Positions 463-33,511 of a DNA stretch of 35,614 nt are shown piece after piece; positions within the stretch are counted from its first letter, which is position 1, and every line of letters begins with the position of its first letter. Under the pieces are notes generated by a model. That model made no database searches. It saw only the letters and a program-made list of their open reading frames with translations, and was not told the origin of the DNA. Origin of the DNA: a virus (Duplodnaviria; Caudoviricetes); IMG/VR virus record IMGVR_UViG_3300020044_003831, positions 1 through 35,614 of that record. One strand, written 5' to 3'. A program made the translations under genes and the position numbers.

Positions 463-562
463 TGTCTCCGGTCAGTTTGAGGGCTTGGGTGATGATGTGC
501 TCGGGGTATGGCTGGCCTTCGCGCACCTGGTCGAGGATTTGCATGGCTTGAAAATAGTTCAT
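446..562 (-). CDS. Small hypothetical protein (38 aa)
   Basis: ATGA overlap with the initiator stop; MNYFQAMQILDQVREGQPYPEHIITQALKLTGDIDDES fills the gap exactly. Confidence 0.65.
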   Translation of the reverse strand: MNYFQAMQILDQVREGQPYPEHIITQALKLTGDIDDES

Positions 563-1365
563 GCCTTCCTCAGCACTTGGTTGATTTGTTGGCGAATGTG
601 CTCAGGCATCGGCGCGGCTTTTTTCAAGTCGGCCTCAATCTTGAGTAACGCTGGATCCGGGCCGGTGTGCAAAGGTGGCACGGTTGTCCTGGCAATGTCT
701 GCGGCTTGTTGGGCAAATGATTGCTTTGCAGGTCTTGCGCTTCTGCACCAATTACGCCAAGTGGCCTCCCAATCCAACTTGGTCGCATCCTTGCCGCTTT
801 TGGCCGTCCAATAGTCCTTGAATTTCTCAGCCTCAAGCCTGACCGTTGCGGCATCCCATACCATGGCCTCCAATGCCCACTCACCCCATGGCTTTGGAAG
901 TTGCCAATCAGGTGAAAGCCTTTTTGCTTTGGCCTTGCCGACAGGCGGGGCGTCAACAATTGGTGTTGGTGTTGGTGTTGGTGTTGGTGTTGGTGTTGGT
1001 AGCTCAACATCCGTTGAGCGAACGTTCAACGACCGTTCAACGTTCGCTTTGCGAGCGTTAACCGACGCTTGAGCGGACGCTCTTGCCTTGGCCTGCTTGT
1101 CCTGCATTTTCTCAATTTCTTGATCGCATCTAGCGTGCCTCCAGCCGTCTTCGTCAAGCTGAAAAAACTCATTCAAGACATCGCGCACAGTGGTTGCATG
1201 GTCGCGCATTCTGATGATTCTGGCGACTTCGCTGGCGTCTTTTGGCAATGGGCCTTCACGCAAGTAATAGGCATCAAGGCATCGGCGGTAGGCCAAATCC
1301 TCAAGCAAGTCGAGGTGGCCGGTATGAGCGGAATAGTCGCCCAAATGGAATGGAAAGTAATTCAC
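559..1365 (-). CDS. Phage replication initiator, YdaU/DUF1376-type N-terminus
   Basis: GTG start; NYFPFHLGDY..T.HL..LEDLAYRRCLDAYY motif; PT linker; C-terminal FKDYW...KLDWEATWRNW initiator motif. Confidence 0.85.
   Translation of the reverse strand: MNYFPFHLGDYSAHTGHLDLLEDLAYRRCLDAYYLREGPLPKDASEVARIIRMRDHATTVRDVLNEFFQLDEDGWRHARCDQEIEKMQDKQAKARASAQASVNARKANVERSLNVRSTDVELPTPTPTPTPTPTPIVDAPPVGKAKAKRLSPDWQLPKPWGEWALEAMVWDAATVRLEAEKFKDYWTAKSGKDATKLDWEATWRNWCRSARPAKQSFAQQAADIARTTVPPLHTGPDPALLKIEADLKKAAPMPEHIRQQINQVLRKA
960..1000. repeat. Hexanucleotide tandem repeat (TGGTGT)n, about 7 copies, encoding a Pro-Thr linker
   Basis: Visible run tggtgttggtgttggtg...; protein PTPTPTPTPTPTP. Confidence 0.9.
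1011..1080. other. Probable replication origin (iteron-like repeats inside the initiator gene)
   Basis: Clustered GAGCG/AACGTT/CGTTCAAC motifs including the inverted repeat gcgaacgtt..aacgttcgc; lambdoid origins lie at this position in initiator genes. Confidence 0.5.
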
Positions 1366-1394
1366 AAATTTTCCGTTCTCTGTCCTTCGCAAAA

Positions 1395-1461
1395 GAAACG
1401 CACGGCAGGCGGGAAGGCTCGCTTTTCGGTCAGGGGATCAGTCCCAACCTATCCGGGTTTC
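1395..1461 (-). ncRNA. Structured leader RNA, three-way junction (motif copy A) upstream of the initiator
   Basis: GAAAC-CGG-AUA-[GGUUGGG..CCCUGACC]-GAAAA-[GCG AGCCUUCC CGC]-CUG-CCG..GUUUC; preceded by TAAAAT; same architecture at 11305-11360. Confidence 0.6.
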
Positions 1462-1474
1462 AAACAATTTTACA

Positions 1475-2092
1475 TCAAGCGATGTATCTTCCGAGTTTTA
1501 CCTTTGTGATTGTTGACCTGTTGACATTGAGCCGTCTTGATAAATCTACGACTTTCTCTCCATCTGCAATGCACTTCAAAATCATTTCAACATCATCGTT
1601 TGTAAATTTTTTGTTTGCTTGTGAAATTTTGTCTTTCCACGTTATTTTTCTTCCCTTCATTGCTGCGCTATGTTTTTTTCTTGTTTCATCGCTTGTGACG
1701 CGATTTGCCCTTGCAGCCTTGAGTTTTTCAATTGTCTTTGGACTGTGTTTTCTTCCAATCCATGTCTGCGCCATTTTTTTTCGCGTTTCTTCTGGAAGGT
1801 CATTGACACCATCTCCGCCAGATGTGTTGTTGACTAGCGGCCAATAATTCTTTTTTCCAAATGAAATCCAGTAACGCTCTGCGCTTTGCCAGTCACTGTC
1901 ATTGTCAAGCTCTTGCAAAATTATTTGATGTGGACGCTTTCCGTCTGCCTTCAATTTTTGCAGCCAATGAGAGCGGTGGCAGTTTGATGCCTCATTCATA
2001 TGATTGGAGAGTCTTTCCTTTGGACGTATTGACTTTCCAATGTATCGAATTTTGCAAGTATCAGGGTCAATGAGTGCATAGATAAATATCAT
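1475..2092 (-). CDS. GIY-YIG homing endonuclease with NUMOD3-like repeats and C-terminal HTH
   Basis: IYALIDP...IRYIGKS...RLSNH; repeats EETRKKM, KHSPKTIEKL, SDETRKKHS; AT-rich relative to the genome. Confidence 0.88.
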   Translation of the reverse strand: MIFIYALIDPDTCKIRYIGKSIRPKERLSNHMNEASNCHRSHWLQKLKADGKRPHQIILQELDNDSDWQSAERYWISFGKKNYWPLVNNTSGGDGVNDLPEETRKKMAQTWIGRKHSPKTIEKLKAARANRVTSDETRKKHSAAMKGRKITWKDKISQANKKFTNDDVEMILKCIADGEKVVDLSRRLNVNRSTITKVKLGRYIA

Positions 2093-2124: not shown

Positions 2125-4320
2125 TCAAGCAAATAAGCCATGTTGTTCTTTTTGCGCATCCTCAATGTTTTTGCACGCAAGATCAAAATAGGATGGCTTT
2201 AGCTCTGTACCAATAAACCTGCGGCGCATTTTCAATGCAACATAACCTTCGCTGCCAATTCCAGTGAATGGGCTAAACACCAGGTCTCCAGGATTTGTCC
2301 ATAGATGAATGCATCGTTCGATTACATCAAGCTGCAAAGGGCAAGCGTGCTTGAGATCATTTTCATCTCTAGCAGGCATCTTATTCAGCGTCTTTCCTTG
2401 CTCAATGTCATCCCAGATTGGGCTGGCGTACTTTTGCCACAGGTGGACGGGCAAGTCTTCGCCGTGCGTGACGCGCTCCTCAATCTCGCCGGGCTTGCGC
2501 ATAGTCACGACGTAATCAGGCAGACCCATGCGGCTCATGGTGCTGTTTTCGCGGATGGTCTTGTGCAGCAGACCAAGCGCCTTTGTGCGCTGCATGGCGA
2601 CGACTGGGTCTTTCCAAATGCAGACCTCAGAATGATAGATGAACCCGGCATCCTGAAATGCGCGGATCAAATCGCCACGAAAATCACGCAGGCCAATGAA
2701 GCCCTGGCGCATCTTTGTCGTAGGTAGGTTCATGCAATGAAATGAGACATTGCGGCCAGGCTTCAAGACCCGGAAAAGCTCGGAGATCAGGAACTTCAAC
2801 TGCTCGACAAACTCATGATCGTTTTTGCAGTTGCCCATGTCGTGGTCGCTGTTTGAGTAAACAAAAAGATCAGCAAATGGTGGCGAGAAAACAGAATAGT
2901 CCACGCTGTTGTCTTTCATGCGGCGAGACCACTTCACACAGTCACCCAAATGGACGGTAAAGCCATCGCCGTTGAATGTGTCTTCGCGATATTCATCGAC
3001 GATGTTCTCTTGTCCTGCGAGTTCTTTGTTCATAATGTCTTTCATGTGTTCGATCATGTTTGCACTCATCTCGTGATGTTGCACTTCTTTGCGTTTGAGG
3101 TTTGCCAGAATTTGGCCTTCGTTTTCTGCGGTGAACATATGCACCTGCACATTGCGCTTTTGGCCGAATCGGTAGCATCGGCGGACGGCCTGATAGAACT
3201 TCTCAAATGAGTCATCCAGGCCGACAAATGCCATGCGTGCGCAGTGCTGCCAATTCATGCCGAACCCACAAATTTTTGGCTTAGAAATCAGGACGCGCAA
3301 TTCACCGCTGCTGAACTTCATCATTTGTTCGGCTTTGTATTCAGCCTTGTCGCTGCCTTGCACGTTGACAGATCCTTCAATCAATTCGGCCAGCAACTCG
3401 GCCTCGTCATTCAAGTGACACCAGATAAGCCATGGCTCGGATGTGTCTGCATTGACAACATCGGCAAGCGCCCTGCATCGTGCTTCAATGCTATCGCGCT
3501 GGGCCTTTCTGCGCTCGGTCATGGTCATGGCTGGGCGCGAGAACAAATCGCCTTCAATGGCCTCGGTTTGAATGACATGCTCGACGTATTCTGGCGCGGG
3601 CAAAATGTACTTACTGCCATCAAAGCCCAAGTCGGACGGATTGCGCAGCACCACAGCCCAAGATCCCATCCACTCCCAGAACTTGGATGCGCCCCATCCT
3701 TTGAGTCGCCAAGTGCCGGTGTCGCCGGTGTCGTTGACAAAATAAGTCGCCAGCATCTCGGTGCGTGTCATGACGCCCAAGAACTCGCACTGATTTCCAA
3801 GCTCCTCGAAGTCGTTGGGCGATGGCGTAGCCGTGCAACTCAAACGATAAGGCACACCCTGGGCCGATGTAATGATGTGTTGACGGGTCTTGCCGTCGTG
3901 GGCCTTCAGGATTGATGACTCATCCAGCACAAGGCCATGCAACTCGGCGAAGTCAATCGCATCCATGCGCTCGTAATTGGTGATCCAAACACCAGGCGAA
4001 TCAATCACGCCAGAATGAGGAACGCGCTTGACCTCAATGCCAAACGTGGAGCCCTGCTCAATGGTCTGCTCAGACACGGCAAGCGGGGCCAGCACCAACA
4101 CAGATCCGCCAGTGTGGCTTGCCACTTCATCAGCCCATGAAAGCTGCATCAGCGTTTTGCCAAGGCCTGTATCGGCAAAGATGGCGGCACGGCCACGGCG
4201 AACAGCCCAGCTAACGATGGCGTGCTGAAAGTCGAACAAATGCTCGTTCAGGTCGCCAGGTTGATGGCCGGTTGCCACTTCTTTGCGGCGCTTGGCTGCT
4301 ACAAAATCTTCATATTCCAT
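2125..4320 (-). CDS. SNF2/SF2 helicase-like domain fused to an N4/N6 DNA methyltransferase
   Basis: Walker A DTGLGKT, LDESS, TATP and QAVRRCYRFGQ; C-terminal FSPPF (motif IV) precedes FSPFTGIGS (motif I), i.e. beta-class order. Confidence 0.9.
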   Translation of the reverse strand: MEYEDFVAAKRRKEVATGHQPGDLNEHLFDFQHAIVSWAVRRGRAAIFADTGLGKTLMQLSWADEVASHTGGSVLVLAPLAVSEQTIEQGSTFGIEVKRVPHSGVIDSPGVWITNYERMDAIDFAELHGLVLDESSILKAHDGKTRQHIITSAQGVPYRLSCTATPSPNDFEELGNQCEFLGVMTRTEMLATYFVNDTGDTGTWRLKGWGASKFWEWMGSWAVVLRNPSDLGFDGSKYILPAPEYVEHVIQTEAIEGDLFSRPAMTMTERRKAQRDSIEARCRALADVVNADTSEPWLIWCHLNDEAELLAELIEGSVNVQGSDKAEYKAEQMMKFSSGELRVLISKPKICGFGMNWQHCARMAFVGLDDSFEKFYQAVRRCYRFGQKRNVQVHMFTAENEGQILANLKRKEVQHHEMSANMIEHMKDIMNKELAGQENIVDEYREDTFNGDGFTVHLGDCVKWSRRMKDNSVDYSVFSPPFADLFVYSNSDHDMGNCKNDHEFVEQLKFLISELFRVLKPGRNVSFHCMNLPTTKMRQGFIGLRDFRGDLIRAFQDAGFIYHSEVCIWKDPVVAMQRTKALGLLHKTIRENSTMSRMGLPDYVVTMRKPGEIEERVTHGEDLPVHLWQKYASPIWDDIEQGKTLNKMPARDENDLKHACPLQLDVIERCIHLWTNPGDLVFSPFTGIGSEGYVALKMRRRFIGTELKPSYFDLACKNIEDAQKEQHGLFA

Positions 4321-5739: not shown

Positions 5740-5999
5740 TCAAACCCCAATTCTTTTTTGAACGCAGACAAAGCCATCACCAACGCCTGGGCCTGGTCGT
5801 AGTCCATGCAGACATAGTTGTCTTGGTGCGTTGATGTGTACGATTTAAAATGGGCGATAAACCCGTTGCCGGTGTCTTTCAGTTCGCAGCGCATTTTGCC
5901 TTTGATGGCGTAGCCTTGACCGGCAATGACAATCGAATTCTCGCCATCGCGAAAAACATGATCCTCAAGGCCTTCGCAGATAAATGTTTGATTGCTCAT
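5736..5999 (-). CDS. Hypothetical protein
   Basis: ATGA overlaps on both sides. Confidence 0.7.
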   Translation of the reverse strand: MSNQTFICEGLEDHVFRDGENSIVIAGQGYAIKGKMRCELKDTGNGFIAHFKSYTSTHQDNYVCMDYDQAQALVMALSAFKKELGFE

Positions 6000-6511
6000 A
6001 AGCCCGCCCATGGATTGTTTGTGTAGGACTTGTAGCTGCGGCCCGTTCTGATCTCGGTCACAACGCTGAAATTGATGCCAAGCTCGCGGGCAATGCTTTT
6101 GCTGGTGCCTTCCATGTTCCTGATTTTTTCAATCAACTCAGGAGAGTGAGGAGATCTTGCGCGTGCGGCCAATGCCAGTTTGTAATTTCTGGCCGGGTTT
6201 TGCTGATACTTTGTGCGTGCAGTAGTGAATTGCTGGAGCTGTTTGCGGGTCATCATTTGAATGTGTGCAGGCTCAACACAGTGCGGGTTTCCGCATTTGT
6301 TGCTGGCAAGAAGTCCATCAACTTTGAGTCCCAAATGATTGATTGCGATCCATCGACGAACCGGGATAAGTGCTCTTTTGTTTGGCACTCGCATATATGG
6401 CACATCGCTGCCTTTGCCACCATCCCAGATAAGGCAATCGCCGTCTTCGTGGCTTTTTGCTCTGATGAATTCCATTGTGATTGGCTCACCGGGTTTTCGT
6501 ATGACTTTCAT
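5996..6511 (-). CDS. Zn-loop HNH/homing-endonuclease-like protein with C-terminal HTH, possibly degenerate
   Basis: DCLIWDG, CGNPHCVEPAHI, IARELGINFSVV; the usual H before the first Cys and the downstream N appear substituted. Confidence 0.65.
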   Translation of the reverse strand: MKVIRKPGEPITMEFIRAKSHEDGDCLIWDGGKGSDVPYMRVPNKRALIPVRRWIAINHLGLKVDGLLASNKCGNPHCVEPAHIQMMTRKQLQQFTTARTKYQQNPARNYKLALAARARSPHSPELIEKIRNMEGTSKSIARELGINFSVVTEIRTGRSYKSYTNNPWAGL

Positions 6512-6556: not shown

Positions 6557-6874
6557 TTATGGGATGGGCACATCATCCGGCCACAATCCTAACTTCGTCA
6601 GTTTTTCTATGGTCTTGATGTGTGCGGGCTGCCACATGGCCTGGCGCTCAGCTTTTGTCATAGATGCGCCTTGATCGAGCGATGCGTGGCATTGGAAGCA
6701 AAGCGATGCGATCAGGTTGTCATCCGCCTTGATGCCCCGGCCCTTGCCGCCGCCGTGATTTGTATGCGCGGCCACAACCGTGCCATCGTCAGCGCCACAA
6801 TGCTGACAGGGTATCTCGCGGGCGTTGCGCAGAAGCGTTTTGCTTCTGACGTAGTCGTGCTTTGGGAATCTCAT
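6557..6874 (-). CDS. YbcO/DUF1364-like putative nuclease
   Basis: CQHC..TVVAAH..GKGRGIKADD..LCFQCH..D pattern. Confidence 0.75.
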   Translation of the reverse strand: MRFPKHDYVRSKTLLRNAREIPCQHCGADDGTVVAAHTNHGGGKGRGIKADDNLIASLCFQCHASLDQGASMTKAERQAMWQPAHIKTIEKLTKLGLWPDDVPIP

Positions 6875-8273: not shown

Positions 8274-8621
8274 TCAGTATGAACTCAGCGCGTCGTGCGC
8301 CGTTTGAATTGACTTGGCGGCTTTTGCCAAGTCCTGCTTGACCTCGCCAGCGATGGCTTTGGCCTTGATCTTCTTTTGCTGGATAGCGCCCAGCTTGGCG
8401 GTCGCGGCCACGCCATCATCTGTGTCTGCGTCGATGTGGATTCCGCAAACGTAGCGGGCCACCACCAGGATGCGCACGGGCTTAGGGATAGCCGTTTTGC
8501 TTTCGTAGCCCGAGGATGCGGACTGCTTTACGCCAATCGGCCCCCAAAATTCAGCCTGCCCAAGGCCAAGCGACTTGCGCAGCACCTTGACGGATTCGTT
8601 TGTGATCTCTTGCTCTGTCAT
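8274..8621 (-). CDS. XRE-family HTH transcriptional regulator
   Basis: LRKSLGLGQAEFWGPIGVKQSASSGYES...PKPV; first gene of a divergent operon. Confidence 0.85.
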   Translation of the reverse strand: MTEQEITNESVKVLRKSLGLGQAEFWGPIGVKQSASSGYESKTAIPKPVRILVVARYVCGIHIDADTDDGVAATAKLGAIQQKKIKAKAIAGEVKQDLAKAAKSIQTAHDALSSY

Positions 8622-10426: not shown

Positions 10427-11299
10427 ATGTTCAAAAACGCCACCATTTACCGCTACAAAATCGAATCAGCCTTGCCGCCAGACTTTGGCGACTTTCCGTC
10501 CTTTGTCCCATGCGGCGACTTGCAGGAAAAGTCTGTCGGCTGGATTGAGCCTCGCGGCCACAACCACGGGCCAATGGTCGAGATCGTCAACGGCGAGCGC
10601 ATCGTCAAGCTGATGATTGAAACCAAGTCAGTGCCCGGAAAAGTCCTGCGCGACGAGGTGGAAAACCGCATTTATGAAATCGAGCAGGCCCAGGGCCGCA
10701 AGCCTGGCAAGAAGGAAATCCGCGAGATCAAAGAGGATGCCCGCCTTGCATTGCTGCCACAAGCCTTCCCAAAGCAAACAGCAGTCTTGGCCTGGCTTCG
10801 TGATGATGGCCTGATGATCGTGGACACGGCCAGCAACTCACGCGCCGACGACTTTGTTGGCGCGATCCTTGCAGCCGTTCCGTCGATGCAACTTTACCTG
10901 GTGGCGACGCCAACAAGCCCGCAGGGAATGATGACAAATTGGCTGCTGGGCGATCATGACGAGTTGCCGTACGGCTTCAGCATTGGCCGCGATTGCCTGC
11001 TGGAATCGATCGGCGACGATTGCGCCAAGGTCAAATTCACGCATCACAATCTGGATTGCGACGAGGTGCGAAACCATGTGCGCGAAGGCAAGTTGCCGAC
11101 GGCGCTTGGCCTTGAATGGGATGGCCAGGCGGAATTCATGCTGACGGATTCCATGCGGATCAAAAAGATCAACCTGCTTGATGCTGGCGCAGGCGAACAC
11201 GGCGAAGATGCGTTTGATACGGATGTGGCGATTTTCACGGGCACGTTTGGGCCGCTGGTGGATTCGCTAATTAAGGCGCTCGGGGGTGAGCTAGTGTAA
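10427..11299 (+). CDS. rdgC: Recombination-associated protein RdgC
   Basis: MFKNATIYR, SVGWIEPRG, LLPQAF and GKLPTALGLEW motifs; about 290 aa. Confidence 0.92.
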   Translation: MFKNATIYRYKIESALPPDFGDFPSFVPCGDLQEKSVGWIEPRGHNHGPMVEIVNGERIVKLMIETKSVPGKVLRDEVENRIYEIEQAQGRKPGKKEIREIKEDARLALLPQAFPKQTAVLAWLRDDGLMIVDTASNSRADDFVGAILAAVPSMQLYLVATPTSPQGMMTNWLLGDHDELPYGFSIGRDCLLESIGDDCAKVKFTHHNLDCDEVRNHVREGKLPTALGLEWDGQAEFMLTDSMRIKKINLLDAGAGEHGEDAFDTDVAIFTGTFGPLVDSLIKALGGELV

Positions 11300-11304
11300 A
11301 ATTA

Positions 11305-11360
11305 GTGTGTGGCTACCTTTAGCGGGGGAAAAGCAGATTGAATCACTGCCTGCCACATTC
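11305..11360 (+). ncRNA. Structured leader RNA, three-way junction (motif copy B) upstream of HNH-AP2
   Basis: UGUGG-CUA-[CCUU UAGC GGGG]-GAAAA-[GCAG AUUGAAUCA CUGC]-CUG-CCACA; preceded by TAAAAT. Confidence 0.6.
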
Positions 11361-11388
11361 TTCTTGATTCGTACATGAGAGATTCATC

Positions 11389-11904
11389 ATGCAAATTTTC
11401 CAAAATTCGGAAAAATCACTGACATTACAAAAACTTTACGAAATGTTTTTTTATTGCCAAGAAACTGGGCTATTTATTAGAAAAATTGGCGTAAAAGGTT
11501 CTTCTGCCGGTGCTGTTTCTGGATCGCAAATGTCAAAAGGATATTTGCAAATTGGCGTAAACAAAAGAAAATATCTTGCTCATAGACTTGCTTGGTTTTA
11601 TGTTTATAAAGTTTGGCCGGATGGCCAGATAGATCACATTAATGGAATAAAAACTGACAATCGAATTGAAAATCTTCGATGCGTTACAAACAAGCAAAAC
11701 CACGAAAACTCAGGGATAAAATCATCAAATAGCAGCGGATTTCGTGGTGTGTCTTTCTACAAAAGAGATGGCACATGGACTGCTCAATTAACTCACAATT
11801 ACAAAAATATATATCTTGGAAGATTTGCGACAAAAGAGCAGGCAGCCCAAGCCGCACAAGAAGGTCGCGCAAAATTTTTTACACATTCATCAAGGCAAAA
11901 ATGA
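11389..11904 (+). CDS. HNH homing endonuclease with AP2 DNA-binding domain
   Basis: AHRLAW, IDHINGIKTDNRIENLR, SGFRGVSF..W.A and YLGRF; AT-rich. Confidence 0.92.
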   Translation: MQIFQNSEKSLTLQKLYEMFFYCQETGLFIRKIGVKGSSAGAVSGSQMSKGYLQIGVNKRKYLAHRLAWFYVYKVWPDGQIDHINGIKTDNRIENLRCVTNKQNHENSGIKSSNSSGFRGVSFYKRDGTWTAQLTHNYKNIYLGRFATKEQAAQAAQEGRAKFFTHSSRQK

Positions 11905-32688: not shown

Positions 32689-32960
32689 GTGTTGCTCCTT
32701 GCTCGGATGACGTCTCGGTATGCAGCAGCACCTTGCCCCCAGCCTTCTTGATACGCTTCACCCCATGCGCTATTGCCCACCGGGGCCAGCACATCTTCGT
32801 GGTCGTGCAAGGCTTCGCAAACCTTGCGCTCGTCATCCCGGACAAGAGCTGCGAAGCGTTCAAGTGATTGACCGGACATCACGTATTCAACGTCACAGTT
32901 CTTCCTTTGCTGAGTCCATGCTCCAGCCTCGCGCGCCAAGGTCAATACGTCCTTGCTCAT
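32685..32960 (-). CDS. Hypothetical phage protein (AREAG...LERFAALV...IRAR type)
   Basis: ATGA coupling on both sides; recurrent small-protein motifs. Confidence 0.75.
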   Translation of the reverse strand: MSKDVLTLAREAGAWTQQRKNCDVEYVMSGQSLERFAALVRDDERKVCEALHDHEDVLAPVGNSAWGEAYQEGWGQGAAAYRDVIRARSNT

Positions 32961-33511
32961 ACATGCCTCCAGATTTTTTCGTTGCGGATACGACAAACCG
33001 TGCTGACGCTGACGCTGTACTTTTTTGCGATCAAAACACCAGACCCAATCGGCATTTCTGCAAGGTCAGTTTTTATTTTCCTTACAGTTTCTTCATCAAG
33101 CACGGATAGCCCATGCTTGCTGCCACGCGGTCTGCTTTCGGGTTTTGTATGCGTTCCGTTTTTGCATCCAGTTGCTTTTGTCCCGTGTAACACCTTGTCT
33201 GCTTCGTTTTCTTTGGCGGTTCCGTACACCAAGTTGCCTGATCGGTTGTTTGCTTTGTATCCATCAAGATGGCGAATTTGCAAACCTTTTGGTCTTGGCC
33301 CAATAAACACTTCAGCAACAAGCGAGTGAACGGACTTTGATTTGGTTTCACCGTTGATTTGCAAATGAACACGGCAATAGCCTTTGGCGGTAACTTGCTG
33401 CGCCATTCTTCTGCCTCGGTAGTTGTACACCTCTCCAATTTCGTCAACCCAATATCCCGGCGCAGATGGAATTGGTTTGGCACGCGCTATTGCAATGATG
33501 TCTTGGCTCAT
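32957..33511 (-). CDS. HNH homing endonuclease (NUMOD4-like N-terminus, C-terminal HTH)
   Basis: PGY.V...G.V, VHSLVAEVFIGPRP...IRHLDG.K.NN...NL.YGT..EN..D. Confidence 0.9.
   Translation of the reverse strand: MSQDIIAIARAKPIPSAPGYWVDEIGEVYNYRGRRMAQQVTAKGYCRVHLQINGETKSKSVHSLVAEVFIGPRPKGLQIRHLDGYKANNRSGNLVYGTAKENEADKVLHGTKATGCKNGTHTKPESRPRGSKHGLSVLDEETVRKIKTDLAEMPIGSGVLIAKKYSVSVSTVCRIRNEKIWRHV

Follow-up and report, generated by a model that had tools for sequence, protein, structure and literature searches.

Two int-alpA leader RNAs in a phage genome carry a variable loop that covaries with two downstream sites

What is the common leader RNA that precedes two unrelated genes of one phage, and how might it act on them? 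The window, the whole stretch of 35,614 nucleotides that was analysed, is a complete phage genome of 35.6 kb with direct terminal repeats. A preliminary description of its sequence had placed an RNA of the same three-way-junction skeleton, preceded by a TAAAAT box, ahead of a replication gene and an HNH-AP2 gene. We located both leaders at the positions described, copy A on the minus strand (1461-1395) and copy B on the plus strand (11307-11358), each with its box (1472-1467 and 11297-11302, respectively). The two elements are a real pair from a known family, int-alpA. The window contains two occurrences of the pattern GAAAAGC-N8-25-GCCTGCC, as compared to 0.02 expected, and none of 100 shuffles reached two. 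Neither an Rfam scan nor a relaxed parser found a third int-alpA copy in the genome.

An existing Rfam family had been suspected for these RNAs, and the Rfam scan identified it as int-alpA (RF02996) for both copies, with no other family within E 0.5 for either; the fold is therefore already catalogued. Relative to the family cut-off of 35.8 bits, copy B scores 35.8, equal to it, and copy A scores 32.6, below it (E = 9e-7 for the genome). Both align over model positions 1-71, with the UA, GAAAA and CU linkers and a P3 closed by G-C/C-G, and copy A differs from the Rfam family in its longer P2 and split P1. RF02996 is typed 'Gene; sRNA' in Rfam. Its consensus structure contains no loop-target pairing and no kissing loop, although the consensus sequence reads CCUU in the loop and has AGG in the tail. 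The family presumably resides in phages and prophages upstream of genes, a context hinted at by its name, and it reportedly figures among the 224 candidates presented by Weinberg et al. 2017. The term 'alpA' had no match in the main text of that study (PMC5737381). The phage context holds here: both copies end 30-33 nt upstream of a start codon in a complete phage genome.

Copy A (1395-1461, minus strand) belongs to a long-P2 subtype that was assigned by the RF02996 match and the alignment of relatives; its MFE fold is not the three-way junction. It consists of P1 (GAAAC/GUUUC, an internal loop, CGG/CCG and A.G), UA, a 7-bp P2, GAAAA, a 3-bp P3 and CU. The putative promoter box lies 2 nt past the stop codon of a GIY-YIG gene, with a predicted start near 1460. 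The P2 loop ACUGAUCC (1435-1442), a predicted kissing loop, contains the palindrome GAUC at 1439-1436. As the preliminary description had noted, the P3 guide loop AGCCUUCC (1412-1419) is complementary to GAAGG (5 bp) and GGAA (4 bp). GAAGG is the distal site, T1 (1384-1388), and changes with the loop in Rep relatives. GGAA is the proximal site, T2 (1371-1374), an SD-like sequence 8 nt ahead of the GTG that is weak alone, with a helix predicted at −3.3 kcal/mol. The downstream gene (559-1362, minus strand, GTG at 1362) encodes a DUF1376 protein (PF07120, E = 1e-26; phrog_3992), which we infer to be the replication initiator from the PHROG label 'primosomal protein' and the gene context.

The DUF1376 gene itself contains, at 960-1045, a run of 6.8 TTGGTG units that encodes a Pro-Thr linker and 2.9 copies of an 11-bp repeat, and the 11-bp repeats may be origin iterons. 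Immediately upstream of copy A is the gene for the GIY-YIG homing endonuclease (1475-2092, minus strand). It has a promoter-like site of its own, TTGATT-18-TAAAAT (box 2104-2099), that ends 6 nt ahead of its ATG, a distance that suggests a leaderless message.

Copy B, supported by the RF02996 match and by its MFE fold, is of the short-P2 type, with a 7-bp P1, UA, a 4-bp P2, GAAAA, a 4-bp P3 and CU, and its box overlaps the rdgC stop codon. The P2 loop UAGC (11320-11323) is self-complementary over 2 nt only. The P3 guide loop AUUGAAUCA (11337-11345) pairs over 6 bp with each of the two sequences named for it in the preliminary description, UGAUUC at T1 (11365-11370; 7 bp with a G.U) and GAUUCA at T2 (11381-11386). 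T2 falls between the SD-like GAGAG (11377-11381) and the ATG (11389) of an HNH_3 and AP2 homing-type endonuclease (PF13392, PF00847; 11389-11904), all on the plus strand. The T2 helix, at −6.6 kcal/mol, is slightly stronger than the T1 helix, at −6.0 kcal/mol. The same region can form an alternative 5-bp hairpin, CAUGA/UCAUG (11373-11390, plus strand), that includes part of the AUG. A near-identical copy B leader with the same T1 and T2 occurs on a viral contig, L103, with a different ORF downstream and a different −10 box, which suggests that the leader moves as a module. Three more HNH-type genes in the window (5996-6511, 6557-6874 and 32957-33511, all minus strand) have no int-alpA leader.

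Single-sequence folding of the two copies is unremarkable (z = −2.0 and −0.4) and gives little support, so that all rests on comparison. Six pattern scans yielded 719 loci, many of them chance matches, and a parser requiring P1, P2 and P3 stems kept 268 (229 distinct), both window copies included. A structure-only filter passed 208 of these, 138 with distinct P3 loops. Because the parser read nothing past P1, the tests of downstream targets are not circular. Among 100 records, hand-picked from 175 viral entries with longer contigs favoured, 97 match RF02996 at E≤0.01, 54 of them above the cut-off. We estimate that ∼1,900 stored viral contig stretches hold one strict pattern, and the majority of the sampled matches are real. 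The stems covary: in 53 short-P2 sequences, whose rows were pre-selected for pairing, 95.9% of cells are paired and there are 242 double-sided changes as compared to 69 in shuffles. The GAAAAGC/GCCUGCC skeleton is typical and variable in the family, with GUG/CAC and GGG/CCC stems and AAAAA junctions also seen. A subtype with an A/U-rich P1 (ACAACAAAC/GUUUGUUGU; loci L362-L473) is found ahead of HTH_36 proteins, and int-alpA does not appear to be confined to a single host group. The blastn matches of one homologue in named phages, such as the cultured Enterobacter phage Tyrion, lie between or inside genes, and no RNA annotation was found among the 40 matches listed, with one region viewed.

The preliminary description had looked to homologues for covariation between the P3 loop and its downstream sites, and this covariation is present across the 138 distinct loops. 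In the region from +8 to +50, the best and second Watson-Crick runs with a leader's own loop are 5.68 and 4.49 nt, as compared to 3.76 and 3.06 nt with swapped loops (0 of 10,000 permutations). The upstream control is null (own 3.49, swapped 3.49), as is a control in the coding region. The signal persists in 56 loops at least three edits apart. It is also kept in the 65 loops without an anti-SD word, and SD bias was therefore rejected as its cause. Chance as an explanation is rejected by the pattern shuffles, the loop-swap permutations, and the non-SD-like and distant-loop subsets. Taken alone, copy A is weak, with 10 of 137 other leaders' downstream regions matching its loop equally well, and copy B is unusual, with 1 of 137. 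On a contig whose Rep is 89% identical, L829, the P3 loop is UUACACCUU, T1 is AAGGUG and T2 is AAGGU; the loop and both sites have changed together and the P2 loop of copy A is retained. The family-wide covariation and this relative settle the two-site observation despite the weakness of copy A alone. The leader is directly upstream in 14 of the 21 Rep relatives aligned from the N-terminus and absent in 7, and T2 is just 3 nt in four Rep relatives (L845, L849, L850 and L854). None of five HNH relatives, which are few and distant among the viral contigs, has the leader. Next to the loop-target helices, G.U appositions are in excess (36 found, 25 expected) and A.C appositions are short (50 found, 71 expected), which gives modest support for a sense-strand RNA; the same counts in distal P1, 30 G.U vs 31 A.C, are uninformative.

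The arrangement of the two sites was compared in the 109 leaders in which both are at least 4 bp. T1 pairs flush to the 3' end of the loop in 90 of them, usually with 1-3 nt left at the loop 5' end. Flush 3' pairing with few 5' loop nucleotides is the classical pseudoknot geometry. T1 starts ∼16 nt and T2 ∼29 nt from the first base of the P1 3' strand, and their spacing is 9-17 nt in 95 leaders. At least four loop nucleotides are common to T1 and T2 in 99 leaders; since the two sites use the same loop bases, one loop holds only one site at once. T1 is longer than T2 in 60 leaders, equal in 32 and shorter in 17, and T2 is predicted to be the stronger site in 38 of 114. Of the 87 leaders with a recognisable SD, 66 have a T2 that overlaps it. 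At the other end of the element, 75 of 136 homologues have a −10-like hexamer immediately before P1, as compared to 11 and 9 for control windows and 33 for shuffles; given this position, P1 is probably the 5' end of the RNA. A consensus scan accepted no −35 hexamer for either TAAAAT box.

The P2 loop has a property that was absent from the preliminary description: it is self-complementary. All 53 distinct P2 loops contain a 2-nt palindrome, and 35 contain a 4-nt palindrome (13 expected; 0 of 5000 shuffles), the 18 without one including that of copy B; 12 of 138 P3 loops contain a 4-nt palindrome. There are 13 different 4-nt palindromes, and the palindrome ends one base from the loop 3' end in 24 of the 35 (9 expected). 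The loop matches itself better than it matches the P2 loops of other leaders, and it has no own-match in the downstream region, the upstream region or the P3 loop. The palindromes exchange freely, unlike a conserved protein site, which fits the prediction that the loop forms a kissing homodimer. GACG, a recurrent P2 loop among the homologues, forms a 2-bp kissing homodimer in MoMuSV (PMC7357161). Copies A and B do not cross-pair, with runs of 2-3 nt. For eight pairs of co-resident leaders (4 of 17 fetched copies were unparsed and left out), 0 of 16 cross-matches and 1 of 8 cross-kissing matches were found vs backgrounds of 15% and 16%, neither difference being significant, so that selection for orthogonality between co-resident copies is not supported.

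Comparison of homologues establishes the fold, the two covarying sites, the self-complementary P2 loop and the −10-like box upstream. It is very probable that the RNA controls translation through loop pairing, a claim common to the dimer, monomer, released-RNA and opposite-sign readings set out here. Our best reading, which we hold tentatively, is a concentration-sensing brake on translation. Transcription would start at about the first base of P1, and the P3 loop of each RNA would pair with its own distal T1 as a pseudoknot, so that the loop is occupied and the ribosome site is free (ON). As transcripts accumulate, a second copy would dock by P2-P2 kissing and cover the Shine-Dalgarno region by pairing its P3 loop with T2 (OFF). 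Initiator and nuclease expression would thereby come under negative feedback, with a separate specificity for each leader. We propose that pairing as short as 4-6 bp would suffice through the summed effect of two weak contacts. The sequence does not fix the sign of the individual steps or whether they act in cis or in trans. Against the dimer stand its weak contacts, as the kissing helices span 2-4 bp and the T2 helices 4-6 bp, the 18 P2 loops that lack a 4-nt palindrome, the leaders in which T2 is the stronger site, the Rep relatives with a 3-nt T2 and the lack of significant orthogonality between co-resident leaders. The P3 loop of the partner is also bound to its own T1, so that the dimer needs strand exchange or a partner whose T1 is yet to be made.

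A single molecule might do the same in cis, its P3 loop toggling between T1 (ON) and T2 (OFF) while the P2 palindrome serves something else. The switch would be set by folding kinetics, by a host or phage protein, or by a ligand at the conserved UA/GAAAA/CU junction. SD-sequestering pseudoknots are an analogue of such a switch. The repZ pseudoknot (PMC8383071) is likewise analogous, the two sites are mutually exclusive on the same loop nucleotides, the junction is highly conserved and a second molecule is unnecessary. We nevertheless consider a monomeric switch unlikely, if still a serious contender, as it leaves 13 interchangeable palindromes in a fixed register unexplained, and with unrelated genes downstream no single autoregulatory protein is evident. 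The same parts could also act with the opposite sign, the loop resting on T2 by default (OFF) until dimerisation or capture by T1 frees the ribosome site, which would delay expression until transcripts build up. In its favour, T2 at least equals T1 in strength in copy B and in the 38 of 114 leaders, IsrK activates in trans (PMC4825925), and homing nucleases are commonly off until late (PMC2988022). T1, however, is transcribed first, lies closer, is flush on P3 in 90 of 109 leaders and is usually longer, which makes this order of events improbable.

It is distinctly unlikely that the active species is a short released RNA that ends after P1, without T1, and targets both sites of full-length messages in trans, perhaps in the form of a kissing dimer that places one loop on each site. 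Such an RNA would work like P1 C4 or P4 CI and could exclude related phages. The fairly fixed T1-T2 spacing would fit a dimer with two loops, the linker that follows P1 has on average a high U content, and the short isoform of IsrK acts on its own read-through transcript (PMC4825925). A tract of at least five U after P1 is nevertheless present in only 65 of 138 leaders, much of the U-rich stretch of copy A is the 3' strand of P1 itself, and a terminator scan flagged neither copy; an intrinsic terminator after P1, being inconsistent across the family, was rejected. The reading also lacks an upstream target, a C4 match and an integrase. An element that works as DNA, with operator half-site repeats and a palindromic methylation or protein site by the promoter and no RNA function, is highly improbable. 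In its favour, T1 and T2 form direct repeats, several P2 palindromes are common methylation or restriction sites, and an N6/N4 methyltransferase is among the phage genes, but the stems covary, with sequences that vary freely while pairing is kept, T2 tracks the SD, and the G.U excess and A.C shortfall beside the loop-target helices, modest as they are, also speak against it.

A Pfam match was found for 54 of the 128 downstream N-termini (19 DUF1376, 12 HNH/NUMOD4, 6 HTH_36 of which one also has DnaD_N, 3 Rha, 3 CapR and 11 others), and 74 had none. These genes would appear to be mostly ones harmful in excess. No integrase or AlpA is among the 128, and the two genes that follow int-alpA leaders in this phage encode a DUF1376 protein and an HNH nuclease, not an integrase or AlpA.

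Matches to integrase (PF00589), S24 (PF00717) and HTH_3 (PF01381) domains are absent from the complete genome, so that lysogenic immunity is not evident. A gene for an RsaL-like HTH protein (8274-8621, minus strand) lies between the leftward arm and the ERF/Gp157/RdgC arm, where the two diverge, and its product is a candidate repressor in a genome without a detected integrase. The phage also encodes an SNF2-like helicase domain fused to an N6/N4 DNA methyltransferase (2125-4320, minus strand). Membership in the C4/CI group was rejected: RF01695 has no match at E≤1 in the genome and none in the Rfam scan. The preliminary description was right about a fixed scaffold whose variable loop changes with two matches and that is placed where it would control translation of replication and nuclease genes. 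Its framing as C4/CI-type immunity is not supported, there being no C4 model match, no upstream target and no consistent U-tract to release a free sRNA.

It is possible, if doubtful, that int-alpA is a widespread RNA-only dimer switch in which leaders recognise their copies via a palindromic kissing loop and silence ribosome sites via a programmable guide loop. Such a portable switch would let phages sense the level of their own transcripts or the copy number of their genomes without any protein, for use with initiators, homing nucleases and Rha-type regulators. If the dimer step is true, it would represent bacterial translation control by a message that senses its own copies, for which we found no example in the open-access literature. 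It would also be relevant to the question of how phages that lack an evident repressor keep initiator and nuclease levels in check, and would offer natural riboregulator parts that can be re-programmed. Should the cis switch alone be true, a catalogued RNA would still gain a new function. Under either outcome, a large orphan Rfam family gains a concrete and cheaply testable mechanism. In the open-access literature, int-alpA was found only as a table entry, and as the same words denoting a gene order; 'RF02996' is unmentioned there, and we found no functional study of the family. Subscription papers and the Weinberg 2017 supplement, which that search did not cover, may note some of these features.

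Two strongly supported features, the covarying target sites and the self-complementary P2 loop, have no counterpart that we found in print, and the mechanism that joins them is a proposal. Like P4 CI, P1 C4 (RF01695) and Gifsy-1 IsrK, int-alpA is a phage leader RNA with a loop that pairs with two sites of its own transcript. C4 carries two separate antisense segments, a' and b'; unlike C4, the int-alpA P2 loop has no own-target signal upstream or downstream. CI undergoes processing and has one target on either side, seqA upstream and seqC downstream (PMC4825925), whereas in int-alpA a single loop serves two sites that are both downstream, and the second loop is self-complementary. In repZ of IncI-alpha, a pseudoknot between a loop and a downstream sequence in the initiator leader sets access to the ribosome site (PMC8383071), and int-alpA has the same kind of loop-to-downstream pairing in a replication-gene leader. 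The repZ partner is a separate Inc antisense RNA from the opposite strand, while the proposed int-alpA partner is another copy of the same sense, with a choice of two sites; no promoter facing either leader came out of the consensus scans, which missed the boxes of the leaders themselves as well. T4-type homing endonucleases (I-TevI, segB and mobE) are limited in translation by RBS-sequestering hairpins (PMC2988022), and here too an RNA structure would limit translation of a mobile nuclease. Those hairpins are simple, lack a three-way junction, a second site and a kissing loop, and a late promoter relieves them. The P2 loop resembles the MoMuSV GACG and HIV-1 DIS kissing loops in its self-complementarity and fixed register, and GACG recurs in int-alpA; the retroviral loops pair genomes for packaging (PMC7357161), not messages for the control of translation.
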